Shown piece after piece: positions 1-47,105 of a stretch of DNA of 54,880 nucleotides. The notes below the pieces were generated by a model that did no database searches, was not told the origin of the DNA, and saw nothing but the letters and a program-made list of their open reading frames with translations. The stretch is from Chara braunii (Eukaryota; Plantae; Charophyceae), in NCBI GenBank assembly GCA_003427395.1, contig BFEA01000041.1, positions 4,087,028 through 4,141,907 on the forward strand. The letters run 5' to 3'. Numbering within the stretch: position 1 is the stretch's first letter; each line of letters begins with the position of its first letter. The position numbers and the translations under genes are program-made.

Positions 1-1345
1 GTTTGTGAAACGCGGGACCCCTTCGGGGGTGTGTGGGGGGGGGGGTCCGGCGTTTGTGAAACGCCGGACCCTTTGTGTCTGTGTGGGGTCCGGCATTCGT
101 GAAACGCAGGACCCCTTTTGGGGTGTGGGGGGTCCGGCGTTTGTGAAACGCCAGACCCCTTTGTGTCTGTGTGGGGTCCGGCATTTGTGAAACGTAGGAC
201 CCCTTTGGGGGTGTGGAGGGGTCCGGTGTTTGTGAAACGCCGGACCCCTTTGGGGGGGTGTGGGGGGGGGTTCCTGCGTTTCACAAACGCCGGACGCCTT
301 TGGGGGTGCGGGGGGTCCGGTTTTTCACAAACGCAGGATCCCTTCGGGGGTGTGGGGGGTCCGGCGTTTGTGAAACGCAAGACCCTTCGGGGGTGTGGGG
401 GGTCCGGCGTTTGTGAAACGCAGGACCCCTTTGGGGATGTTGGGGGGTCCGGCGTTTCACAAACGCAGGACCCCTTCGGGGGTTGGGGGGGGTCCGGCGT
501 TTGTGAAACGCCGTACCCTTCGGGGGTGTGGGGGATCCGGCGTTTGTGAAACGCAGGACCCCTTTGGGGGTGTTGGGGGGTCCGGCGTTTTACAAACGCA
601 GGACCCCTTCGGGGGTTGGGGGGGGCTCCGGCGTTCGTGAAACGCCGGACCCTTCGAGGGTGTAGGGGGTCCGGCGTTTGTGAAACGCAAGACCCCTTTG
701 GGGTTGTTGGGGGGTCTGGCGTTTCACAAACGCAGGACCCCTTCGGGGGTTGGGGGGGGGTCCGACGTTCGTGAAACGCCGGACCCTTCGGGGGTATGGG
801 GGGTCCGGCGTTTGTGAAACGCAGGAACCCTTTGGGGGTGTTGGGGTGTCTGGCGTTTCACAGACGCAGGACCCCTTCCGGGGTTGGGGGTGGGGGGCGA
901 CGCTTGTGAAACGCCGGACCCTTCGGGGGTGTGGGGGGGGTCCGGCATTTGTGAAACGCCAAACCCCTTTGTGTGTGTTGAGGGGTCCGGCGTTTCACAA
1001 ACGCAGGACCCCTTCGGGGGTTGGGGGAGTCCGACGTTTGTGAAACGCCGGACCCTTCGGGGATGTGGGGGGTCCGGCGTTTGTGAAACGCCAGACCCCT
1101 TTGTGTGTGGGTGCGGGGTCCGGCGTTTGTGAAACGCCGGATCCCTTTGGGGGGATGCGGGGGTTCGACGTTTCACCTTTGGGGGTGGGGTGGGAAGGGT
1201 CCGGCGTTTCACAAACGCCGGACCCCTTTGAGGGTGTGGGGGATCCTGCGTTTCACAAACGCCGGACCCCTTTGGGGGTGTGGGGGGGTCCGGCGTTTCG
1301 CAAACGCCGGGCCCCCTTCGGGTTGACGGGGTCCGGCGTTTTTCC
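1..1345. repeat. Array 1 of a 29-bp palindromic unit GGGTCCGGCGTTT(GTG/CAC)AAACGCCGGACCC with short G-rich linkers (period about 40 bp)
   Basis: Directly visible: roughly 30 diverged copies, with both GTG- and CAC-centred orientations. Linkers such as cttcgggggtgtggg and tttgtgtctgtgtg. The array runs off the left window edge. Confidence 0.95.
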
Positions 1346-1738
1346 CTCAACCCCTTGGGCCAGGCGTTCAATAGTTGTCGGACCATGTGATGGNNNNNNN
1401 NNNNNNNNNNNNNNNNNNNNNNNNNNNNNNNNNNNNNNNNNNNNNNNNNNNNNNNNNNNNNNNNNNNNNNNNNNNNNNNNNNNNNNNNNNNNNNNNNNNN
1501 NNNNNNNNNNNNNNNNNNNNNNNNNNNNNNNNNNNNNNNNNNNNNNNNNNNNNNNNNNNNNNNNNNNNNNNNNNNNNNNNNNNNNNNNNNNNNNNNNNNN
1601 NNNNNNNNNNNNNNNNNNNNNNNNNNNNNNNNNNNNNNNNNNNNNNNNNNNNNNNNNNNNNNNNNNNNNNNNNNNNNNNNNNNNNNNNNNNNNNNNNNNN
1701 NNNNNNNNNNNNNNNNNNNNNNNNNNNNNNNNNNNNNN

Positions 1739-1809
<71 letters not shown>
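1739..1809. repeat. (TG)n microsatellite at a gap edge
   Basis: Direct observation. Confidence 0.95.
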
Positions 1810-1812
<3 letters not shown>

Positions 1813-1929
1813 TCCCGCCCTCATTAATGGAATGAGATTGCAGGCAACTATAAAATCTCACACTCCCATTACCGCATGTTTTGGCCTGCTTTATCTGCCA
1901 GGTTCCGACGGCGAACCGATCATGTCAAC

Positions 1930-4746
1930 ATGAACTCCGAAAGGGTCAGTCCCGTACATGATTCTCAACCATCCGTTGATTTGCTACATACACCGACCGT
2001 AACTCATTTCGCTGTTACCTGCGAAAGTCGATCGCCTTCGGGCAACGTGACACCGTCCAAGCGCCGACATTGGGTGACCTCGATCAATAAGTCGCCGAAA
2101 CGGTGTGCTGTTTGCCGCCGCCAGACGGTGGGGAGCAATAACGTTGTCCGTCGTCTTCGCCTCGATGATATCCTTAAAGGAACTACTCCTTTCACTTCTG
2201 CCCGAGGGTCAGTTGGTTCGAGGACTGCGGCTTTCATAGACGCCCAACCTATGTGCGAGGGTGATGATGTTTCGTACGATTTCGAACTTTCTCAAGCCAC
2301 GATTGAGGAGTTCGAACGGGAACAACTTAAGAGAGACGAGTTCGAACGCGATGAATTTATGAGAGATGGTGAGTTCGAAGCTGACGAGGATGACGCGGTG
2401 GAAAGGACCTCTGTGCCGCCTCACTCCTTGTCGCTCGGTAGACAAGGGAAAAGGAGATACACTTACCGCACGCGCAAAAGAGGATCGAACGAGTCAGATG
2501 CCACATACGAACGTAGGTGCAGCCTCGAGGAGTGTGACGCCGTGTTGAAGAAGACATGTTGCAAGTCTTATGGGTGTCTCTCACGAATGAAACCAGCGGC
2601 CGTCCAAAAGTGCAGATGTGAGTTCAGATCGGTTCGAGGGAAGGATAAGCGAAGGTGGTGGATATCGAAGCTTCGTAGCTTCACGGCACTCTGGCAAAGG
2701 AAGCCCGAGGTCAAGCCTATTGTAGAAATGCATCCGGTGTGCGTTACCGCATGGTGTCTGATATTGGGTTGTGGTCGGAACACTTACAAAAAGCACAACG
2801 ATGACCTCGACGATGGAACGGTCGATGCACGGCATGGCAATGATGGTTGCCCTCGGACAACTGCATAATATGCGCTGACATGGTCTGCTTTTGAGGACAT
2901 TATCCTAAATGAGTCTGACCCTATGCCAGATCAGACGGAGACGGGACCGGATTTCGAGATTAGGAACCGTGTTCATCTCCCTTCGGTGTATGGTACAAAG
3001 AAAGATGTTCATAGAAGCATCGTCCGTAGGTTAGAGAAGCTTGGTATGTCTTGCTCGCCGTACCAAGTGTTCTGTAGGATCTGGGGATATTACTTTTGGA
3101 ACGTTTCGACTTGCTAGAGTAACTGACCACGCGAGGTGCAACCAATGCATAAAAAATGCTATCCTGATCGAGGGCGCTCTTCCGGGGCCGCGGCGCCAAC
3201 TGGTTGCCACACAAAAAAGCCACCTTGATATGCAACGGGCCCATCACCAGATGTATGACCGATGGTCGACGGAATCTCAGTTTCATAAGACCCGGAGTTT
3301 GTGCATAATTATAGATGGAATGGACCAAGTGAAAACAACCATTCCCCATGTATCACGTCGGCATTTGTCGAAGGAGATGGCTAACAACGCAATGATGAAA
3401 ACGAACCTCACTGGTATAATAGCTCATGGTAGGACGCCGTCCTTGATCGTCCACACGTGGTTTCCTTATCTGTCGCACGGGTCAAATTCAGTTGTTACTT
3501 CCATTGCCAAAGTGCTAAGAGACGTGCAAGCTTGCGAAAGACAACTCCCTCGCAAGCTACGCGTCCAAGCTGATAACTGAGGTGGACAGAACAAAAACAG
3601 ATACGTTTTTGCATTCCTCGCTATGTTGGTGAAGTTCCGCATTTTCGAAGTCGTAGAGATGGGGTTCATGATAGTCGGGCATACCCATACTGACATCGAT
3701 GCGAAATTTAGTTTATTCGCTCGCAAACTCAATGGGTGCGACGCGTACACGATGGACGAACGGTTCGCAGTATTGCGAATGTCGTGTGAAGAGTCAGTGG
3801 ACTGTACGCAGCTTACGGAAATCGTGGACTGGAAAACCGCAATTCATCCATTCCTTGACAAAATGATTTCGGGTCATGCTACACCACACCTTTTTAAATT
3901 CTACATGGAGGGTGATACTCCGGCTATGGTTTATAAAGAGCACTGCACCGACAAGCGGTGGGGACCTGAAAACGGACCAGTATACTGGTTCAAACGGGAT
4001 GCGCATAAGAGATGGGCAGGTTCGACATGGGGCTTCGAGCCTCGTCGCGAGTCACCCAACTCCGCTTCGGTGACTTTGCAAACGGTAAAGCGGGTATCCG
4101 GGTGATGGTTAAAACGTGGAAAGATGCTATGAACAAATGGGGAACACAAACCGAAGAGGACCGACAACTGAGGATTGAGAGACTGCAATACTGGACGGAC
4201 CGTCTAGCTGAGTTCGACAACATTAAGACGGAAGAGACTGGAACAGTGCCTCTATCTTACTCGTTTTGGCCATCGCCCACGTTGACCGAACTAAATGCGG
4301 AGTCCGCGGTCCCGTACGTCGTAGCACAACCGCTGAAAAAACCGTGTTTTGTCGGGCGTAGGAAAGATGCACCAAAACCGGAATTCGACCCTTGCAAAGC
4401 AGTCGAGATCGACGATTTCATAGTTTTGCGCGCTCCCAATGACCACGCACAAGAAGGGTGCACATTCTGGGTTGCACGTGTAATGAAGATGGAGAGTGCG
4501 AGTATTTTCGTACAGTACTGGAGGCCATGCGGTCGTGAACACGATTTATCGAAGCTTTACGAAGATGCATGGAACAAAACGTGGAGAGTGAAAACCGAAT
4601 CGGAACCCGGATGGCAAGACCTTAAAAGCGTAGCATGGGCACGGAGCAGCTGGATACAATCCAGAACGGGAATGAAAATACGAAAACGGGATGCAATGAA
4701 AGCACAACAGTCCTTGGCAGCACCAGGTTCAGTTGAGAAAAGATAA
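1930..4746 (+). pseudogene. Disrupted DUF7869/Sola-like DDD transposase
   Basis: The joined frames give N-terminal Cys motifs (CCKSYGCL, VCVTAWCLILG, ARCNQC), DPMP, IIIDGMDQ, TGIIAHG, GSNSVV, LPRKLRVQADN*GGQNKN and FMIVGHTHTDIDAKFS, the motif series of this RNase H-fold family. Lesions: TAA 2866-2868, frameshift near 3105, TGA 3578-3580, frameshift near 4010. Confidence 0.8.
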
Positions 4747-4906
4747 AAGCACAGTCTGGATAGTGTTGCGCGACCGGTGATGTATTCGGGTTAGTGTATA
4801 AGCACGGGAGTTAGTAATGGGCACTAAGTCGTTTGTGGCATTATAAGAACAAGCAATTAGACGGACACAACAGACGGACATACTTGCCGGTGTGGTTGTA
4901 CATTAA

Positions 4907-5674
4907 ATGTACAGGATTGTAGGTGAGCCGGACGGCTCAGTGTCGATGTATGATATTGGCAATTTTGAAGAATACTGAATATGAGGGACCCTGTCGATGC
5001 TCTTCGTTTTTGCATTACATGCAATAGACGCAACCATGGATGCGATCGGTGGTACTAAGCATTGCCACACAGGCACATGGGGAACATCCATACAATACGA
5101 AGAACTAATTTCATTCCGGTACACCCAACGGATGACGGCGGTCGGTCTTCGTTCAGTGAACGAGACAATATTATACCCCACATTTGATACGTGGGCTCCG
5201 CATCTGCAACGCACGGTATCAAGGATGGCTAAGACGTGTGACCCGTTGTTGCACTATTGGAGACATGGTGCACCGCGGTGGAAAAACGTTTTCTACTGAG
5301 CTGGTTGGATATTCGACAACGATATGAGACAGCATGGAAAATTTTTATGTATTGCATTCGAAGCACGATACGGGATGACATACTGTTGTACACGCATCGA
5401 ACGACGGAAACCTCATCCGAACGACGATATCGACGACATGATGTACATCATGTCAAGATACGCATGCCTTTTTTGCAGTGTCGTTCGGGATGGCATGATA
5501 AAGTTTGTGCGGGAGAGGACATCCATGGTCGGAACAATTGTTGTGAAGGTGCTTCAAACTTTCGACGATTATGGAGCAGTACAATACATAAAGAAAACGA
5601 AGAAAAAAAACAAATGTAGATGTGAAACATTTGTTTCGCCGCATGAACGGGGCATTGCGGCATGTGCCACGTAG
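4907..5674 (+). pseudogene. Cargo family member A (unknown function), with in-frame stops
   Basis: One frame from ATG 4907 through ORFs 4997-5299 and 5324-5674, with TGA at 4976, 4982 and 5297. Shares blocks with members B and C: MDAIGG..C..WGTSIQ vs MESVGG.C..FGTSFQ; FLCIAF vs VNCVAC/VLCVAS; KFVR vs SFVK/EFVR. Confidence 0.5.
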
Positions 5675-5959
5675 AGGGGTAAATTGTGTCATGCAGTATA
5701 TGCATTGACGTAGAGGGACGCTATGTGTAATACGATTGCCTACCATATGCATTGCAACATGTGCCACGTAGAGGAGGTTGGGATCAAGGGAGGAGACCGA
5801 GCTTTGGCTATGGCTGACCTTCGTCTCCACTCCATGGATTGCCGTCGCATCTACGAGGCCCTTCGTAGTATGGATATGGCGGTTGAAGTTTGAGGAGACA
5901 TGATGGAGTTCGTGTTGTGCTCCGAATTTTTGTGGTATGTCGTCTTCCCTATCTGCGCT

Positions 5960-7540
5960 AAACGGGGAGAGGGTCCAGCGTTTCACAAACGTCGAACCCC
6001 CGCTCCACTTCGTGCCCCCATGGGGTCCGGCGTTTGTGAAACGCTGGACCCTCTCCCCTAACTGTGCACAGATAGGGACGAGGGTCCAACATTTCACAAG
6101 CGCCGGATCCCGCTCCACTTCGTCCAGAAGTTAGTATATTAGCCGGGTCCTGCGTTTGTGAAACGTTGGACCGTCTCCCCTATCTGTGCGTAAGGGGTGG
6201 ACATTGGGGCTCGAAGTGGCGCGGGGGTTCGGCGTTTGTGAAATGCTGGACCCTCTTCCNNNNNNNNNNNNNNNNNNNNNNNNNNNNNNNNNNNNNNNNN
6301 NNNNNNNNNNNNNNNNNNNNNNNNNNNNNNNNNNNNNNNNNNNNNNNNNNNNNNNNNNNNNNNNNNNNNNNNNNNNNNNNNNNNNNNNNNNNNNNNNNNN
6401 NNNNNNNNNNNNNNNNNNNNNNNNNNNNNNNNNNNNNNNNNNNNNNNNNNNNNNNNNNNNNNNNNNNNNACCGGACCCTCTCCCCTTCTGTGTCGAAGGT
6501 GTAGTGGGATCCGGCGTTTGTGAAACGCTGGACCCTCTCCCCTATTTGTGCTTAAGGGGGAGAGGATCCAGCGTTTCACAAACGCCGACCCCCGCTCCAC
6601 TGGGAGCCCCCATGGGGTCTGTCGTATGTGAAACGTTGGACCCTCACCCCTATCTGTGCTGAAGGTGGAGAGGGTCCAGCGTTTCGCATACGCCGGACTC
6701 CACTACCCCTTTGGCAAAGAAGGGGTCCTTCGTTTGTGAAACGCTAGACCCTCTCCCCCATCTGTCCTTACAGAGAAGAGGGTCCAGCATTTCACAAACG
6801 CCGAACCCCCGCTCCACTTCGAGCCNCCATAGGGTCCGGCGTTTGTGAAACACTGGACCCTCTCCCCTAGCTGTGCTGAAGGGGGAAAGGGTCTAGCGTT
6901 TCGCATACGCCGGACCCCACTACCCCTTCGGCACAGAAGGGGAGAGGGTCCGGTGTTTCACAAATAGGGAAGAGGGTCCAGTGTTTCGCAAACGCTGGAC
7001 CCCATGGGGGCTCGAAGTGGAGCGGCGGTCCGGCGTTTGTCAAACGTTGGACCCTCTCCCCTTCGGCAAAGAAGGGGTCCAACGTTTGTGAAACGCTAGA
7101 CCCTCTCCCCTATCTCTGCTTAAAGGGGAGAGGGTCCAGCGTTTGACAAACGCCGAACCGCATGGGGGGCACAAAGTGGAGTGGGCTCCGGCGACCATCA
7201 ACAACTTCAGCATAGTTAGGGGAGAGGGTCTAGCGTTTCACAAACGTTGGACTCCACTCCGTGTCGAAGGGAGGAGTGGGCTCCAGCTTTCATGAAACGT
7301 TAGACCCTCTCCCCTTTCAATATTTATAGGGGGAGACGGTTCAGCGTTTCATAAACGCCGAAACCGCGCGCCACTTCGAGCCCCCCCCGGGGTCAGGCGT
7401 TTGTGAAACGCTGGACCCCCCTCCCCCTTTAATCACAGATAGGGGAGAGGGTCCAGCGTTTCAGAAACGCCGGACCCCATGGGGCCACGAAATGGAGCAG
7501 GAGTTCTACGTTTGTGGAACGTAGGACCCTCTCCCCCTTC
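5960..7540. repeat. Array 2 of the same 29-bp palindrome, with longer self-complementary linkers (CTCTCCCC...GGGGAGAG; CGCTCCACTTCG...)
   Basis: Directly visible; interrupted by gap 6260-6469. A few linker types recur in both orientations. Confidence 0.95.
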
Positions 7541-7655
7541 AGCACAGACAATAGGTGGCCTGGCGTGACATGTTTCCAAATTTTATCGCAAACATTCATA
7601 CAGCAGTGTATGTGTTGTGTACAAAAGCTACTTCGCGTGTTCATCGAGTTGCGGG

Positions 7656-8496
7656 ATGGCCACTAACGACAACAACCATCATCGGCAGTTGGACGAGAAT
7701 ACGAAATTCCGGATAGTCGAGGCACTTCGAGTCGATCCATGGCTAAGCGTGCTGCCATGGCGAGGAACAGTTAGGAACTGGAGCGAGATCGATTGGGAGA
7801 TCGCGATGATAAAATGTCAATGGGCGCACGACTTCAGATTTGCTAACGAGATGAAGTGGGGCTCTCATCGAAATACATTCCGCCTATCTCGAGACAACGT
7901 ATATACCGAACTATGCAGAGATTCATTGGATGAACAACCATCTGGGTACTTATGACCCTCTTGTCGTAAATGCAAGCCAAGATTCGACGAATGAGTGATG
8001 CGAGGAGGATGGAGAACTTTCATGCAAGTTCGTAAGAACATCACCTCGCACGTGGCCGAACTGGTTCAAAGTCGAACTGCAAAGGTGCGCAAGATTGTGC
8101 CAGAGAATCACAACGTACCCCGTGCGTAACGAAGCGGGGACGAGCAATAAGCGCATATCGTATTACTCTGTGAGAGTTTTCTTAAACGATAGCGATTTAT
8201 GTAGAGTCAATTGTGTAGCATGCACAGGTAAGGGTGAAAGATTAATAAAGGTACGATGCGAAGCACTGTTGAATGAACACGCAAGCGAGAATTCGGTATT
8301 TGATGTGAAAGAGTTTGTGGAAGAAGTAGAACATAAAATATGCACCATAAGAGACGCTATTGGCGTCGCTCTCGTCGGAACGTGCAGTTTCGTAAAAATG
8401 TCGTATATATCATCATTCGACAGGGACGACAATGGCGAACCCGAGGGTTTGAAATTGCTCACATTCGGCTCACCCATGCATGGCTTGTATAATTAA
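7656..8496 (+). pseudogene. Cargo family member B (unknown function), disrupted near 7950-8000
   Basis: ORF 7617-7955 (ATG 7656) plus the frame of 8095-8496. Motifs DPWLSVLPW, CQWAHDFRFANEMKWGS, SPRTWPNWFKVEL, ISYYSVRV, IRDAIGVAL..SFVKMSYISSF and FGSPMHGLY are collinear with member C. Confidence 0.7.
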
Positions 8497-8685
8497 GAAG
8501 GAAAACGTATTAAACGCATTGGTTCATACTAGCAGATTCTCATATTACAAATAGTTTAGCACGGATAGGCAAGTATCATCACTTAGTGTTAGCCTCATCG
8601 GAGAGTTATCATTTCTCGGCTTTATTTACGAGCGTCTACACGTTCGATTTTGTCGCTCATGTGTGTGTGGTGTGTAGGGTGCATA

Positions 8686-9667
8686 ATGTCATCGACAACG
8701 TCGACAAGCATCAGTGGAAGTCCCGAGAGACACAAACACACAACAAAACCATTTCCTCCTTGTGCAAAATCGGTGCGGCATTATAACGGTCATACTCGGC
8801 TCAAGTATGACCCAAGAGAGGAATTCGACGAGGACCCATGGATGACCGTCGTCCCATATATGAATCGACATCTTGACCAATGGACCGATGGTAATTGGAA
8901 TGCGATGGAGAGTGTGGGTGGCTGCCCTTGCGCAAACCATTACAAGTTCGCCAATATGTTGGAGTTTGGGACCTCATTCCAGTGCCTGATGGTCTTCTCA
9001 AGCCTGTTTTCCTCACCCGTCTGCGCAAAGCATACCGCAACATTGACCGCTACAACAGTCGCCTCGACTTCGTGTACATCATAAGTTCGCCACGAATTTG
9101 GACGAGTTCGCTGAAACAAGAGTTGATAGATACAACTCCTCATTGTTCATTCTTGGAGCAGTACCACTCCGTTGCCCGGGGATTTATCCACGAGCTGTGT
9201 CATACTGTTGCGTGCGGTTGAGTATTATCGGATATGAATTCGCAAGAGTGCTCTGTGTGGCTTCTTCAAATAAATCGTGGAAACTCGTAGATGCAGTTGT
9301 GCGCGTATCACGGAACCAACTCTTTCTTCAGCCGCCACAGGGTTGGTGGTTGCCTGTTCGTTGGGATCAAGATGGACGGTCGGATGTAGTGATAGCAGGC
9401 CAGATGCAAAATCCGGCATTGTGGCAACAGCTGGAAGAGAAAGCGATGGCGATACGAGATGCCATTGGGAATTCCTTAGCATGTCCGGGAGAGTTTGTTA
9501 GGTTGAAATACATGTCGGTATTTTCGGAGAATGTAACAATCAAGGAGCCGCAGATCCACGTATATGGATCGTCCATGAATGCTATGTATGGTTTCAGTCC
9601 ACGACCTCGTCCGCGGCAAACCCCGTACGTCACAAGATTCGGACGGGTTATCAGACCTCCTACTTAA
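8686..9667 (+). pseudogene. Cargo family member C (unknown function), two frameshifts
   Basis: ORFs 8650-9084 (ATG 8686), 8895-9221 and 9098-9667. Motifs DPWMTVVPY, CPCANHYKFANMLEFGTS, SPRIWTSSLKQEL, VSYCCVRL, IRDAIGNSL..EFVRLKYMSVF and YGSSMNAMY. Confidence 0.7.
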
Positions 9668-9854
9668 GGGATGTAGTTAGTGACAATGTAATCATAGCGG
9701 ATATACTGCTTTTTCTGTTTTTTATCCGCTATATGGAGCATCTTCGTAGTTAAACAATTTTGTAATTGTATAATAGACGTGCCTGTGTACAATATTCAGA
9801 ATCTAATATGACGAAACTCGCGATTTTTGTTCGTCTACACGCTCAACATGCAGG

Positions 9855-10748
9855 ATGGAAGTCGGTCAAACAAGCTCGAATGGAAGCGGGTCCTCTCATC
9901 AAGTTCCATCAACAATTGAGGATCTCATTATTTTAGACACTAACATTTGGTCGGTTGATATCGTCGATGAATTTGCGAATTATGAGTACTTAAATGTCGA
10001 AAACGAAGTTGGGCCGGATAATAAAATTTTACCGATCATGGGGTTTGTCAACGGACAAGAGACGATTGTGTCCGACAATGCATCAAATATGTGGTACCTA
10101 TACACAAAGGAAGATGACGCATACATCATTGTATCGAGGAAAGACGTTGTGGATCCTTTGGAGATGCTAACCAATTGGAGGGAGGTATGCAGGAAACAGG
10201 ACTGGGACGAGAAAGACAAATTGGAACAAAAAGTGTGCTCGTGGTATTCCATTGACAGAAAAGAATTGCTTGCACTGGTGGTGGTGGACTTCTATGGTCG
10301 AATCCGAATATGCAATAGAGGCACGGCCATAGTGACACTTTTTACAGCAGCGAAGATCACCGGCACGACAATGAATGAGTTGTTCACTGCCCGGGAAGAA
10401 TTTTAGGACCCCGCGGGTTCAACTAAACTCGAACAGTTTCGGAATGGGTTGGAAATTGACGCGACACTCCGGAAAAAGTTAGTGTTTAGGGTTGACAGTT
10501 TGGTGCATGTGCAACTTCACTACCTTTTTGACAAATGTGAGGAGATAGTGTTCACAGTCGAGCATAGAAAATGCGACACAGGTGAAGTGACTCGTACGAA
10601 GCAGTACCATCGATCGGGACACAAAGAAGTACCATTAGTGGGTGGCAGACAGAAGATAATGATAAATTGTCCGTATTGTGAAGACATTAAGCACGCAACA
10701 AATTTTCTACCTCTTATTCTTCACGAGACCCTGGATAGTAGCCAGTAG
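9855..10748 (+). pseudogene. Orphan ORF of about 297 codons with one in-frame TAG (10404-10406); possible US22/SUKH-like repeats and a C-terminal CPYC
   Basis: ORFs 9855-10406 and 10449-10748 are in the same frame and have globular-protein composition. The family assignment is only a motif impression. Confidence 0.55.
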
Positions 10749-11252
10749 CACAGCAAGTTTGTCCAGGTCAAGACATGTTCAACAATCGATGCGCTTCATC
10801 GCTGACACGCGTTCCGGACTACAATGGTCAGATATGTGAACGACTTTGAACACTAAGGAGATAGGAATTGTTAGCGCACTGCAACAATCGTCAGTTTCAC
10901 TTTGTGTGTTGCACGCAAAATTATTTTTTTTGTTATGTTTAATCGTGTTTTTTTCACCTGTTATTTCGTTTTTGGGTTTCGATGATGTGGACGAAGTTTT
11001 GAAAATCGCAAACATTTGCAATTTACAAGCTCGAAGTTAGCATAAACAAACGTGTTTGAATTTATTTTTTCTTTTATTTTTTTTATTTTTTTTAGACAGT
11101 CTTCGTTGTATCATAGACTACAATTTCTTCGTTCGAATAATGTCGATATTTATCGGATGACTAATTTTGAACAATATTATCTAATCGATCTTGCAGGGTT
11201 GTAGTGCTCGACATTACAACAGGAGACAATAATACGCAAACCTTATACAACA

Positions 11253-11612
11253 ATGGCGCGCATCACTCCCATCGCATTGTCTGCAGGGGCATCTCTCACA
11301 ACAACAAAAGGTCCGTTTCCATACGAATATGAGTCAATAGTAAGATGCGAAGTTGGTGGATGTAAATAATTTGTAGTTGTTGTGAGATTCACGGAAATCG
11401 AGGTGTATGACGTGCGAATTTACGGAAGACAAAGACAAGCAGGGACAGTGGAAGAGTATGTGGAATGTCACGAAGCAGCTTTGCAAGTCCACGAGGAAAA
11501 CAAAATTACATTGATGCGCGAGGGTCGAACACTTGAAGGCTGGTCTGCTTTCGTAACCAACTTTGAAAGCATGCCTATTCCACCTATCCCGACGTGCATG
11601 CTCGACGGCTAG
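11253..11612 (+). pseudogene. Short orphan ORF with an in-frame TAA
   Basis: ATG 11253 (MARITPIALS...) is in frame with ORF 11382-11612 across one TAA. It is flanked by AT-rich spacers like the other cargo ORFs. Confidence 0.4.
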
Positions 11613-12430
11613 AGCGACGCGACGATGTGGATTCCCATAATGAATGCAACAAACAGGAGCCATCAATAATATGTTAATAGGAAAACGTAAGAGTATGAGC
11701 GATGATAATTATTAAAAGATGATAAGTGGCTAAGTAAAACACATGGAGCGATAGCAACAAGCGTCATTCGCATGTGGAAAAATTTTGAGTTGTTTGTTGC
11801 AATTGCAATGTAATAATTGTGACGAACACATAAAAATATGATATGGTTATCAATTTTCTGACTAAAAATTGTCTTGCGGATCACATCTATGTATCAATTT
11901 TTAAGTTAGTTGTTCCATTTGCAACGTGCGTTGGATGTTATAACGTGTTGTGCGGGCGTTTTGTTCCCACGTGTGGCAAAAAAAACAGTGACTTGTAGAT
12001 GAAAAACGCATTGACAATCTTATTATGTTATCATAATGATGCAGATTTCAGAAAAAAAAAACACAACATTGCTGATGAATCCATAGCAAACCAAAACGAA
12101 AATGCTTATTTGATGCATTTTTCGATTGATTTAGCAAAAAAATGTTGAAAATGTTAATAAAACATTTAGTGATAGTCGATAAAATGATGAAAAAAACTCA
12201 AAAAGTTAAAAAATTTTAACTACGTGCACTTGAAAAATATTTCACTATCCGAATAAACGTTGTTCAGGAGCAAAAACTTACCATTTTTGGCGGTGTAATT
12301 CGATAATTAAACCCATGGTATCCTATATACTGCGGTACAAAAACTGCCAGAAAATGAAAAAAAAAGGAAAAAAAAAGAGTTTCAATTTCGTTCAAAAATA
12401 AAAATATGTCCGTTTTGATGAAATCGCGGT

Positions 12431-12501
<71 letters not shown>

Positions 12502-12519
12502 CGTCCTCTCCTTAACACA

Positions 12520-12601
12520 ATGCACCCTGATAGCAAATGTATGCAAGCAATCTTTCTAGTCCCATACAACCATAATGAGGGAGAGTTGTGTCCGGGGAAC
12601 A

Positions 12602-12652
<51 letters not shown>

Positions 12653-12698
12653 NNNNNNNNNNNNNNNNNNNNNNNNNNNNNNNNNNNNNNNNNNNNNN

Positions 12699-12765
<67 letters not shown>

Positions 12766-12860
12766 CCCCACATTGCAGTCTTCCCTGAACACAGCCCACT
12801 CTCATTATGGCTGTACCGGCCTGGAAAGATCGCTTGTATTCATGTTATTTTGGGGAAGCG
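12520..12860. repeat. Diverged inverted repeat (about 12520-12600 vs 12781-12860) around (CT)n / gap / (TG)n
   Basis: The reverse complement of the left arm (ttccccggacacaactctccctcattatggttgtatgggactagaaagattgcttg) matches ttccctgaacacagcccactctcattatggctgtaccggcctggaaagatcgcttg. Confidence 0.75.
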
Positions 12861-12945
12861 GTACCGTCTTCTCCCCGAACGCAATCCACGACTCCACCCT
12901 GATGATGATCTTTCCGGTCCAGCACAGCGGTAATGAGGGTGCATT

Positions 12946-13013
<68 letters not shown>

Positions 13014-13523
13014 CACATCTACATTACCATCTTCCCCTGAGCGCAATGCACCCTTTCTATTCTGTACCAGATCGCTTGTACACATTCGTTATGAGGGAAA
13101 GGTGTAGTGATATGCAGGCGTGGAGTCGGAGATTGAAAATAACCCAGTGGAGTCAGTGGAAACTTTGGCGGAAAGGTGTAGAGATGGAGTATGGATGAGG
13201 GGAAAGGAGTCGAGATTTCCGCCAAGGGTCCAACGGCCAGAAAGGCCAGGGCGTATGCACAAAATGGCGGGTCCAAGTTGAGTGGCCAGGGGTATTTCGC
13301 CAAGTTTCACGTCTGTCATAGGGGCATTTCACCGTACCCATACCTTTTACTAGGCTTTTAGGGGTATCTGACGAATACCCCAACTTTCAGGGGCATCTGC
13401 ACAATTTTCCCCGAAAAAGTAGCAAAAGCAAAATCCAAACAAACAGTTGTTTGTGCCCATAAGCAGAAGCATCACTCCAAAAAAAATAAGAGAAAAACAA
13501 AAAACAAGGATTCTGAACACCTG

Positions 13524-14180
13524 GGGTCTGGTCCCACCTAAGGTTGTTGAGTTTAGAAAACTCAACGGTGTGACGCCATTTCGACATTAATGAATTCGAA
13601 ACAAGAAATAAAGAAACTGAAAAAAAAGCTAGAAACAACTTTTCTCTTTATTTTTGATAACGTAAGTCGGAGAAATGAAAAATGTCTGGAACAGTCGGAG
13701 TGACCGTCTCCGTGAAAAAGGGCTACTCCCCGTGGTGAGGGGACAGGAGGTCACCATTCGTAAAATGGACAGGGACAACGTGGATGGCCAAATGCATTCA
13801 TTGCCCAAAGAAGGAAACGAGTTTCATGCCAGAGAGCCAAACACAGCTGTCAGAGTTCCTCCGTTTCAGGATGCAATGATGTCTCAAAAACCGAAAAAAG
13901 GAAAGGCACGGCCTTTGAGAAATCTACCCTACCCTTGGTAGGGTAGTTTTCTCAACGCACAATGGTTTCCCGCCCAAACCAAAAGGGCCAAAGCATACTA
14001 CAAAACGGTTTTCACGTCAAATAAAAATTCTACAAAAAGACAAAATCTAATAGGTTATTCTCCTGTATTTCGGCACCATCAGATCGCAATACATCAACGG
14101 CAGAGCTCCATCCCACCATGCCGCAAGTGATAGAAAGCTCAGCGTTGAGAAAACTCAACGCTGTAGGTGGGACTAGACCC
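13524..14180. mobile_element. MITE, PIF/Harbinger-like (GGG-starting TIRs, 3-bp CTG target-site duplication)
   Basis: Left end ctg|GGGTCTGGTCCCACCTA; right end TAGGTGGGACTAGACCC|ctg. Both ends carry subterminal GTTGAG..AAAACTCAAC hairpins. No coding capacity. Confidence 0.75.
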
Positions 14181-34086: not shown

Positions 34087-36489
34087 TCATAACCTCGTGG
34101 CATTGGCAAGGTTCAACTCCGTCCGGAAAATTGTAGATGAGTCCTTACCTGCAATGTCATTTACTGAGGGTGATTCTGATTCCCCTGCTGGATCTGACTG
34201 ACCTGTATGGTGACCCCCCTCCTCATTGCATGTGGCAGGCTGCACAGCCCTACCGATTGCATCGAAGTCCTCTGGCAACCCACCCTTCTCATCATCTCTA
34301 TCGTGATCGCTTGCTGCTAAGTCCTCTGGGGAGCCTCTGGTATCCTCAAAGGAAGTGGGATCAGGGGAGGAGGAGGAGGAGGTGGAGAAAGAGGAAGAGG
34401 CAGCAAAGGAAGAGGAGGTATAGGCAGAAGAGGAGGAGGAGGAGGAGGAGGCCACATGCGAGTTCGATATCGCCATCCTGTCAGCTCTGCCCCTGGCAGC
34501 TTTGGCCCTGGCAGCGGCCGTGCTATTCACTGCAGCATCCCTGCCCTTCTTACTCCACCCCCCTCCATTCCTCCCTCTCCCACCATCCTCTTCATCAAAC
34601 CCATCCCACAAGTCAGCCATGGACCCATCTCCACCTATTCGTCCTCGGATAAACTCACGATCCTCCTCCTCCTCCTCCTCCTCCTCTACTTTCTCTGCTT
34701 TCTTTATCCCGTCATCCACCACATCTTCTTCCTCTTCTTCCTCCTCCTCCTCCTCCTCCTCCTCCTCCTCCTCCTCCTCCTCTTCAGAATCATCATCATC
34801 ATCATCGTCGTTCCAGGCCGTGAATACATCTGTCGGCTTCCACAGAAGTCCCGATCCCGCCGTCCGGATGCTCCTCACCCTGTCTGCTTGTTGGATAGTG
34901 GCATCGGGATCCAGACCTAGCATCACCGCTTCCACGGGATCGACTTCAATAAGCCACGCGCTGTTTCCCCGCCGCCCAGGGCCAGAAGGTATGCCATACT
35001 TCTCCCTGAGGAACACGGTGTTCCGCACACCCTTGTGACTCACGTAAAACACATCCTGATGCCTTAACAGCAGCCCCTTCACACTCTGACTCAAGCGGAG
35101 GTCTTTGCGGAAGTGGGTGATCTGATCAATGAGCAGGCGTTTGCCACGTGTCAGCAGGAGAAGCTGCCGGACCATCTGCACACGGCGTATCTCCGCCTCG
35201 AGGGAATTGGCGCGCGGTAGCGCCGCCGCAGCGGCGGTAGGTTCAGCTATGTACTTCTCGGGTTCATCGGCAGCCTCAGCCAGAATGACGGCCGGACCCC
35301 CCCACGTGTCCACGTACCGAAAGGCGTCGGGATGGCGATGGACAAAGTCGATTTCGAAGTTGTCGGGGAGGAGGAGCTCACGACGGACGTGCGACAGCCT
35401 CTCAATGAGGAGGAATTTCTTGTCGGTGAGCAGAAGCAGCTTGCGTAGGTTCTCCACTGCCCTTGGCTCAAGCGCCGCCAAAGCGACCCGATACTTCTGC
35501 ACCTCCGCTGCCGCCTCCGGCGTAAATTGGACATACAGACCGTCCCGCTCTTGCGTCACGACAAAGATGTCGGGATACTGCAAGAAGAAGGACTTCAGCT
35601 TTCGGTCCGCAAAGCCGGCGCGTCTGCGCACCTTGCCCAACTTCTTGAGAGAGATTCGATACCCCGGCTCCTTGGACAGAAACTCCCAGGCTCTTCCCAG
35701 TGCCCTGGTCTTCTTCTCGGCTTCGATGATCCTATCTAAGTACACATCCTTCACTCTCTTCACTTTCTTGTTATTACCGAATGCAGCTGTCACATTGGAC
35801 ATCGCCAGATCTTCTTCGGTGGGTACATGGCCATCCAGGAGCGTCGACCCGCCGCGCCCACGCCATTTGCCCCCAGGGCCTCGCCGGATTACCTCCCGCT
35901 TCTTCTGCAGCCCATCCTCGCCGTCATCACCTGCTTCTCCGGCTTGATGACGTGCAGTGTGACGTGGAGAGGTTGACAGAAGACGACAGCCAAGGAAATC
36001 TGACGACAGACATGGATGCCTCGATGATGACGATGATGACGATGAGGAGGAGGAGGGGGCACAAGGGACACGTGTCGAGCCCCCCCAGCGTCTGGTGGTG
36101 CCCATCAGATTGCTGCCAACAAGGAAAGCATGCCACTTTTCAGCGGGACAGGTGCCCTCAGAAGAACGCACCGTAGAGGTCTGACTAACAGAGCGCAGAA
36201 AGGGGGGCTGCTTCTTCAGGCTGGGCACGGCTCGACGGAGTTGAGTCGGCGACGGCGACGACGACGACGAGGAGAAGATGTCGGCGGAACGAAAAGATGA
36301 ACGAACAGTCGATGAACGTTCCGAGAACATCACAAGGATCTTCATCGGGCCTGAGGAGGAGGAGGAGGAGGAGGAGGCATGGGAGGAGGAATGAGGGGAG
36401 GGAGTATAGACATGCGAGGGAAAGATTGGACACTTGAAGGAGGACCTGGCTGCCGCAGGTCCCGCTGCCAATTCCCGAAAGGCAGACAT
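34087..36489 (-). CDS. PORR (plant organelle RNA recognition) domain protein, WTF1/RPD1-like family, intronless, about 800 aa
   Basis: PORR motifs at about 35770-34990: VKDVYLDRIIEAEKK, FFLQYPDIF, AVENLRKLLLLT, LSHVRRELLLPDNF..HPDAFR, RQLLLLT..KRLLIDQITHFRKDL and LLRHQDVFYVSHKG.RNTVFLREKY. The N-terminus is Ser/Arg-rich and transit-peptide-like; the C-terminal tail is acidic. Start placed at MSAFRE (36489). The frame also runs through the gap at 36556-36659, so the true start is uncertain. Confidence 0.88.
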   Translation of the reverse strand: MSAFRELAAGPAAARSSFKCPIFPSHVYTPSPHSSSHASSSSSSSSGPMKILVMFSERSSTVRSSFRSADIFSSSSSSPSPTQLRRAVPSLKKQPPFLRSVSQTSTVRSSEGTCPAEKWHAFLVGSNLMGTTRRWGGSTRVPCAPSSSSSSSSSSSRHPCLSSDFLGCRLLSTSPRHTARHQAGEAGDDGEDGLQKKREVIRRGPGGKWRGRGGSTLLDGHVPTEEDLAMSNVTAAFGNNKKVKRVKDVYLDRIIEAEKKTRALGRAWEFLSKEPGYRISLKKLGKVRRRAGFADRKLKSFFLQYPDIFVVTQERDGLYVQFTPEAAAEVQKYRVALAALEPRAVENLRKLLLLTDKKFLLIERLSHVRRELLLPDNFEIDFVHRHPDAFRYVDTWGGPAVILAEAADEPEKYIAEPTAAAAALPRANSLEAEIRRVQMVRQLLLLTRGKRLLIDQITHFRKDLRLSQSVKGLLLRHQDVFYVSHKGVRNTVFLREKYGIPSGPGRRGNSAWLIEVDPVEAVMLGLDPDATIQQADRVRSIRTAGSGLLWKPTDVFTAWNDDDDDDDSEEEEEEEEEEEEEEEEEEEEDVVDDGIKKAEKVEEEEEEEEDREFIRGRIGGDGSMADLWDGFDEEDGGRGRNGGGWSKKGRDAAVNSTAAARAKAARGRADRMAISNSHVASSSSSSSSAYTSSSFAASSSFSTSSSSSPDPTSFEDTRGSPEDLAASDHDRDDEKGGLPEDFDAIGRAVQPATCNEEGGHHTGQSDPAGESESPSVNDIAGKDSSTIFRTELNLANATRL

Positions 36490-36884
36490 TGAAACGGTTG
36501 TGGAAGCAAGGAGACCTCCTCCTCCTCCCCTCCTTCCTCCTCCCCCCCTTCCTCCNNNNNNNNNNNNNNNNNNNNNNNNNNNNNNNNNNNNNNNNNNNNN
36601 NNNNNNNNNNNNNNNNNNNNNNNNNNNNNNNNNNNNNNNNNNNNNNNNNNNNNNNNNNNTCCTCCCCCCCCCCCTCCTGCTGCTGCAGAGTTCGTGCGGA
36701 GGCTGATGATGCCAGAAAAACAGCCCGTACAATGATCGGAACTGTGGCAGATCTTTTTCTCGATTTTTCCAGCGACGATGGAAGCTTTTTTCAAGTACAC
36801 ATGGCCAGAGCAAGGAAATCGCATACTACTGTTATTATGCACGCGAGGTCCAACCACCAATGGACTGCAAAGTTGGGATGGAGA

Positions 36885-45247: not shown

Positions 45248-45690
45248 CCAGGTGAACTGCCTGAACATCCGCACGTGGGCTGGACCCCTCATTTCAGAGG
45301 CTTCTGACACGAACATCATGTTTGGACCCTGGTTTCAGATCTGGTGAACAGCCTGAACATCTGCACGAACATCATGTTTGGACTCTGGTTTCAGATCTGG
45401 TGAACTGCCTGAACATCTGCATGTGGGCTGGACCCTGGTTTCAGTTGGTTCAGGCACTTCAGCATGATTCAGAATCTTAATCATGCTCGGAGGTGGGATA
45501 GCCACATCTGAAACTGGTTTCAGATGGTTCAGCCACTTCAGTTCCTTCAGAAGCTTCAGATGTCTCGAGTTTCATATGTTCAAGGTCTGAAAATGAATCC
45601 GGTGAACTGCCTGAACATCTGCACGTGGGCTGGACCCTAGTTTCAGACGGTTCAGACACTTCAACATGATTCAGAATCTGAATCATGTTT
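45248..45690. repeat. Minisatellite (ggtgaactgcctgaacatctgcacgtgggctggaccctggtttcag variants)
   Basis: Direct observation of 4 or more variant copies. Confidence 0.85.
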
Positions 45691-46826: not shown

Positions 46827-47105
46827 CACCGAGCACTGAGCACCGAGTTCGTAGCACGAAGCACCAAGCACGTAGCACCAAGCACATGGTACGAAGTACC
46901 AAGCACGTAGCACCGACCACGTAGCATTGAGCACCGAATATGTACCACCGAGCACCGAGCATGAAGCACCAAGCACATATAATTCATGAAGCACCAAGCA
47001 CCGACCTCGAAGCACCAAGCACCAATCACCAAGCACGTATAATTCACGGAGCACCGAGCGCGTAGCACGAAGCACCAAGCATGTAGCATGTAAGCACCAA
47101 GCATT
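46826..47105. repeat. Heptamer satellite (GCACCRA/GCACGTA)
   Basis: Direct observation. Confidence 0.85.

Follow-up and report, generated by a model that had tools for sequence, protein, structure and literature searches.

Do six open reading frames that stand close together on one strand, interspersed with two arrays of the same palindrome, represent the genes of one mobile element, or the remains of several? This question is raised by the first part of a 54,880-nucleotide stretch of Chara braunii DNA, which we call the window. The unit in question consists of six intronless ORFs, all on the + strand, together with two arrays of one palindrome. The original prediction had described six decayed, intronless + strand ORFs in this order, with the same palindrome in both arrays, and we confirm the order, the strand and the palindromes (28 + 22 units). 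All six ORFs carry between one and four stops or frameshifts, as in a decayed copy. The repeated stretch is at least 12 kb long, although this copy of it is broken, and the unit reaches to about 12,430, where the original prediction had placed its end at 11670. Our reading of the locus is that positions 1 to about 12,430 are probably a decayed copy of one large, modular, Sola1-like cut-and-paste transposon with five accessory genes and two putative binding-site arrays. The features are collected in Table 1.

Table 1. Features of the repeated unit, in window coordinates.
Feature	Position	Strand	Remarks
Palindrome array 1	1..1341		29-bp core in 28 full units; truncated at the start of the window
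Assembly gap (345 N, 1394-1738), then (TG)n run	1394..1813		Contiguity putative in this copy; another copy has an array unit upstream of 1817
Decayed DUF7869, Sola1-like DDD transposase (ORF1)	1930..4746	+	Stops at 2866 and 3578; frameshifts near 3104 and 4067
ORF A, ~240 aa	4997..5708 (start and end approximate)	+	Stop at 5297; frameshift near 5603
Palindrome array 2	5952..7548		22 visible units, same core as array 1; assembly gap 6260-6469
ORF B	7656..8496	+	Decayed paralogue of ORF C
ORF C, ~325 aa	8686..9667	+	Frameshifts near 8971 and 9163
ORF D, 297 aa	9855..10748	+	Single stop at 10404
ORF E, ~138 aa	11253..11669	+	Stops at 11367 and 11610
Multicopy tail, GC 0.31	11670..12431		AT-rich; bordered on the right by an (AG)n run (12432)

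The left end of the element lies before position 1, and the termini and target duplication fall outside the window. The tail is likely the right arm of the element, its exact terminus being undefined, and it has no inverted partner within the window. The spacers had been described as AT-rich, which holds between B and E (GC 0.35-0.41) but not around A (0.45-0.50). A 10-mer common to the regions upstream of C and D is a chance match, found in 474 of 2000 random sets, and an Rfam scan of positions 1-14000 returned no match. The window also holds assembly gaps and numerous microsatellites.

The first ORF identifies the kind of element. Two pieces of ORF1 match DUF7869 (PF25273) with 54.3 and 128.6 bits (E 1.7e-14 and 2.9e-37), both above the Pfam cut-off of 26 bits, and the motifs DGMDQ (3314), ADN*GGQNKN (3569-3598) and GHTHTDID (3677) are present, as originally predicted. 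The ORF is 78-81% identical to Chara braunii proteins; one gene model, CBR_g44941, is collinear with it over 875 residues at 69-81% identity, with no intron-sized gaps. The Sola1 profile consensus reads ilysDncagqNknsfvlaalle at positions 82-105 (PMC5751038 supplement), and in a comparison by eye the second catalytic motif of the window, ADN*GGQNKNRYVFAFL (3569 on), agrees with its D-n-c-a-g-q-N-k-n. The first-aspartate motif, also compared by eye, differs: the Sola1 profile has fdlqkvlslP where the window has IDGMDQVKTTIP. The Sola2 series DFxENY / SDG / TSHGK, as given in the Sola2 alignment (PMC3627910 supplement S10), is not matched by ORF1. Because the second catalytic motif fits the Sola1 profile and not the Sola2 alignment, we classify the transposase as Sola1-like, which makes it a candidate member of Sola1. 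Relatives of the transposase occur at no fewer than 23 metagenome loci (27-49% identity), and none of those listed has a match to A-E. Among PDB sequences there is no solved structure related to the transposase, and an AlphaFold model from its single sequence reaches a pLDDT of 35.

Two of the five accessory ORFs, B and C, are paralogues. A C-family profile built from Chara sequences alone detects both, C with E 1e-37 and B with 3e-9 and 4e-18, but none of A, D and E. The expanded gene family of the original prediction thus has two members, not three. Homologues of ORF C occur in 11 C. braunii gene models. D and E, which had been taken for orphans, turn out to have relatives as well: for D, four gene models and two assembled proteins at 31-41% identity, a family that conserves an LVHxxxH motif and a C-terminal CxYC; for E, two gene models and three short proteins at 31-39% identity. 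No homologue of A was found among proteins of 163-522 aa, with a query that overran the frameshift near 5603 by about 95 residues. Wherever a relative of these ORFs is named, it is a gene model from Chara braunii. A-E have no significant match in Pfam, PHROGs, NCBIfam or PDB, no known domain was found in C, D or E, and no function emerged for any accessory protein. AlphaFold models the D family with low confidence from seven sequences (pLDDT 38), and the leads from the ESM Atlas for a homologue of E are all below 0.9. We rejected capture of host genes in the manner of Pack-MULEs: the homologues of C, D and E are whole, repeated, domain-less ORFs, and host gene families are unmatched. Judged by similarity, the five ORFs appear to represent four uncharacterised protein families (B/C, A, D and E).

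The two arrays share a core, a 29-bp palindrome (reference 43-71) with a 13-bp stem and a 3-nt loop, whose DNA fold has a z-score of -6.6; none of 200 shuffles is as stable. In array 1 the period is 43-50 bp, with a single period of 81, and the G/T-rich spacers all lie on one strand while the loop flips (18 versus 10 units). Array 2 has equal numbers of units in either orientation (11 versus 11), mostly in alternation; two linker types separate them, and paired units can thereby fold into 86-nt hairpins (z -8.7 to -11.4). Short palindromes in arrays are familiar from bacterial REP/BIME arrays and from the homologous regions of baculoviruses. The likeness is one of layout alone (short palindromes set in arrays and, in array 2, units of alternating orientation joined by two linkers), whereas the window is eukaryotic nuclear DNA with a DDD transposase and not an HUH enzyme. 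The pattern has no match in viral and metagenome contigs. Three repeat peptides (P0004, P0005 and P0015) were considered as products of other palindrome arrays and rejected, since 10-40 of 40 shuffles did equally well; in the positive control, one of 40 shuffles did as well.

Array 2 also ends in 161-nt inverted arms, 84% complementary, as would be seen if the arrays were independent foldback or minisatellite repeats, without a role in the element, that had landed in a plain multi-ORF transposon. Consistent with this, sequencing depth rises to 1600 at the array end of the 1810-6010 stretch, far above the neighbouring A region. The arms, however, consist of ordinary repeat units, and the edges of array 2 (5950/7550) show no evident target duplication. 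Moreover, the element contains the core at two places, the other 47 kb of the window lack it (1739-5900 and 7600-54880, with up to 7 mismatches allowed), and a unit is found upstream of the transposase in another copy. We therefore regard independent arrays as highly improbable.

If the unit is a transposon, its parts should recur together elsewhere. We compared two stretches, 1810-6010 and 7560-12430, with sequencing runs; the arrays, the gap, the long microsatellites and the A-B junction fall outside them. Both stretches are multicopy throughout, with coverage in 30 of 30 bins per DNA run. In run X1 the summed depth, which is not equal to copy number, is 240-3200 over 7560-12430 and 43-930 over 1810-5898, versus about 9-15 for single contigs; it is uneven, lowest over A and roughly tenfold higher over C. 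The best runs contain a fraction of 0.38-0.40 of the sampled words, and about one in ten of the matching contigs is 99% alike, so the runs represent other copies and not this one. RNA reads are too few for use (16 and 22 raw reads on the two stretches), and since none is 99% alike, they too stem from other copies.

These other copies retain several of the links seen in the window. In another copy, a joint at 1817/5971 (runs X1 and X4) puts a palindrome unit immediately 5' of the transposase; an 1803-bp contig that reaches 906 bp upstream of 1817 has the same depth in X1 as this joint, and we take the two to be one record. Joints 4731>4838 and 4346>5077 link the transposase to the A region, contigs at a depth of 143-192 bridge C and D in three runs, and one further joint leaves out most of C. 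Gene models, which are predictions and yield order and strand but not distance, add that the transposase leads into a D homologue in two of eight C. braunii transposase models (CBR_g23601, which matches ORF D with E 7e-49, and CBR_g18784), and that C leads into E in two of 11 C models. Pairwise links among cargo, array and transposase, of the kind that the original prediction called for, are thus found at other loci. The three D-paired transposases, that of the window and those of the two models, are just 48-62% identical pairwise, which argues that the pairing is old; the D parts of the models are 40-41% identical to the D of the window.

The same comparison also reveals differences among copies. 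One of the 11 C models has two tandem B/C copies, and seven lead from C into a ParB/methylase-like gene that is missing from the window, two of them by way of an extra ORF F. One C-E model runs on into a Mutator-like domain (E 0.0016, below the cut-off), likewise missing from the window. Six of the eight transposase models have no cargo exon, no gene model has a transposase-C or D-E junction, no record spans array 2 from A to B, and beyond the end of the transposase three long contigs, perhaps from two loci, diverge into unlike sequence over 532-1855 bp. Given the C models that continue into the ParB/methylase-like gene or the Mutator-like domain, the family is modular, with deletions and further genes in other copies.

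Such observations could also arise from two adjoining elements: a foldback-like element of array 1, transposase, A and array 2, with the arrays as long subterminal arms, and a separate B-C-D-E cassette, in which B-E derive from a commoner element (one with the ParB/methylase-like gene or a Mutator-like transposase) that often lies beside the first. The arrays do flank precisely the transposase and A, the depth over B-E is mostly above that over the transposase and A, the majority of C models continue differently, and the A-B junction lies outside the compared stretches. On the other hand, the order and strand of transposase and D recur in two models from deeply diverged subfamilies, which would rarely happen by chance in a gigabase genome, and both halves are equally decayed and similar in CpG content. 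We consider two elements unlikely. One cargo-carrying transposon family is supported by the multicopy depth and by the links between array and transposase, transposase and A region, transposase and D, C and D, and C and E. The proposal of one large mobile unit is thereby upheld as regards repetition and pairwise linkage, and weakened by the uneven depth and by the different continuations of C.

The compact, same-strand, intronless genes without cellular homologues, and the interspersed arrays of the 29-bp palindrome, raise the question of whether the cassette is instead viral. That is, the locus might be a transposon-virus hybrid or a fragment of an endogenised DNA virus, with the arrays as replication origins and a transposase that integrates it as in Teratorn. 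The homologous regions of baculoviruses are replication origins of this kind. In the Atlas, the large ParB/methylase-like protein that follows C elsewhere lies nearest to two clusters from streptophytes (0.95-0.96), which may be its own, followed at 0.76 by phage clusters of ParB plus N6/N4-methylase, a phage kinship that we treat as a lead only. Within the window, by contrast, there is no match to a capsid, polymerase, packaging ATPase or protease in Pfam, PHROGs, NCBIfam, PDB sequences or IMG/VR; none of 13 proteins matches a named PHROGs family at E<0.05; scans of viral contigs found no IMG/VR relative; and all named homologues come from Chara. A viral fold search with the D-family model, which is weak (pLDDT 38), gave no significant match, an uninformative outcome. 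The virus-like nature proposed originally thus finds no significant counterpart among PHROGs, viral contigs or viral structures, and we judge a viral origin very unlikely.

CpG content offers a further view of the unit. The median observed/expected ratio is 1.16 inside (12 kb, n=12) versus 0.69 outside (39 kb, n=39), falling past 13 kb. The contrast is partly a coding effect, as a host PORR gene has 0.95, and 14 of the 39 outside windows reach the lowest inside value. Decay driven by CpG was rejected: among the best-supported listed sites, 8 of 37 transitions lie at CpG, versus 27% expected. This lack of enrichment fits low methylation and proves nothing, and the CpG tests are equivocal.

How might such a transposon work? 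As in its family generally, the DDD transposase would excise the element at terminal repeats and reinsert it with its cargo. A-E would be the element's own genes, co-inherited with the transposase while subfamilies diverged to ~50% identity; the anatomy suggests this, since they have no host homologues, an intronless layout and a shared inheritance. Among the least certain steps, array 1 may help the transposase to recognise the end, and array 2, which is internal, may be bound by an accessory protein. The arrays would offer many two-fold symmetric sites to a dimeric element-encoded protein, and whether a protein of the element binds the 29-bp core seems to us evenly balanced.

The nearest precedent for internal arrays with accessory genes is VANDAL, whose accessory protein VANC binds tandemly repeated motifs and strips methylation (PMC5735166). 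Array binding of this kind is our leading guess for the role of the accessory proteins; that core binding would shield the element from silencing, as VANC does, is doubtful. VANDAL differs in its Mutator-type transposase, intron-bearing genes and short non-palindromic motifs, and Pfam scans found no sequence link between VANC and A-E.

Sola elements are described as 2-9 kb long, some exceeding 15 kb, with TIRs of 11-1124 bp and 4-bp TSDs (PMC10741241). The window transposase resembles Sola1 in the second motif, D-n-c-x-g-q-N-k-n (PMC5751038), but has DGMDQ where the Sola1 consensus has FDLQK, and the element adds five accessory ORFs and internal palindrome arrays. Sola-type elements, which had been characterised as usually single-gene, include published Sola2-Fanzor chimeras in Dictyostelium and Polysphondylium, likewise with a Sola transposase at the 5' end and exchangeable cargo downstream (PMC3627910); the motifs of the window are not Sola2, its cargo is not Fanzor, and it has several genes rather than one. 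Large multi-ORF DDE elements are also seen in Polintons, Teratorn and the enlarged En/Spm elements of Chondrus crispus, the latter 16-20 kb with 4-5 ORFs (PMC6431247), but these belong to other transposase superfamilies, and the polymerase and virion genes of Polintons and Teratorn were not found in the window.

Neither DNA transposons of large size with many ORFs nor Sola2 elements with cargo are thus without precedent; what is new here is the four uncharacterised protein families and the unusual array. The literature searched yielded no description of such an element and no mention of 'DUF7869', although Repbase or the C. braunii genome paper may list the family. Little work has been done on Sola elements, and the retention of a palindrome array and several unknown proteins across divergence to ~50% identity points to undescribed transposon functions, with the 29-bp core an evident candidate target for binding by an accessory protein. 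A number of C. braunii gene models labelled 'hypothetical' would be transposon-cargo chimeras, with consequences for the gene count of a genome that is central to the question of how land plants arose. More speculatively, the locus may belong to an undescribed stonewort group of giant modular Sola-like transposons, the larger of them with a phage-like ParB/methylase gene, in which the accessory proteins recognise the arrays of their own element and so shield or mobilise it. We think this improbable as a whole; if true, it would mean that the algal relatives of land plants either invented sequence-specific anti-silencing independently or contain a module derived from phages.

Intact ORFs for DUF7869-like transposases, 570-780 aa long and 27-45% identical to the decayed transposase of the element, occur in four metagenome contigs (L001, L002, L004 and L005), and among the matches listed for these contigs there is none to ORFs A-E, the five further intronless reading frames of the element. 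The C-terminus of the transposase in the window (4400-4700) has a putative tryptophan-rich beta region (FWVARV...YW) reminiscent of Tudor/SH3-like folds.

Immediately after the tail of the element comes an (AG)n run, a possible insertion site. Further along the window lie short tandem arrays that bear no relation to the 29-bp palindrome core, and a PORR-domain reading frame that is an ordinary host gene. In three C. braunii gene models of related subfamilies (P0004, P0005 and P0015), translated tandem repeats adjoin the transposase or D exons; these repeats may be other arrays, and they tested negative for palindromes.

Features of the window beyond the coding part of the element
Feature	Window position	Strand	Remark
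Long microsatellites of (TG)n, (AG)n and (CT)n	1739-1813 and 12432-13011		Either side of coding part
Long single ORF, PORR plant organelle RNA recognition domain	34087-36825	-	Domain match, E 2e-50
Short tandem arrays with units of 56 bp and of 7/21 bp	45303-45640 and 46832-47103

At other loci of C. braunii, some gene models run on beyond ORF C. One C-E model (P0022, CBR_g25828) contains, downstream of its C and E exons, a Mutator-like transposase region at residues 361-800, whose Pfam match (E 0.0016) falls below the cut-off. In 7 of the 11 gene models with ORF C (P0007-P0012 and P0014), C is followed by a protein, abundant in Chara, that combines a region with a ParB-like HN motif and a methylase-like region. 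A Pfam scan of this protein returned no matches, and the ESM Atlas gives phage ParB plus N6/N4-methylase at 0.76, a score that counts as a lead only. Two of these models (P0010 and P0014) include between C and the ParB-like part an additional ORF F of about 170 aa, which was not found in the window. The ParB/methylase-like gene is possibly an extra cargo gene, or possibly part of a second giant element.
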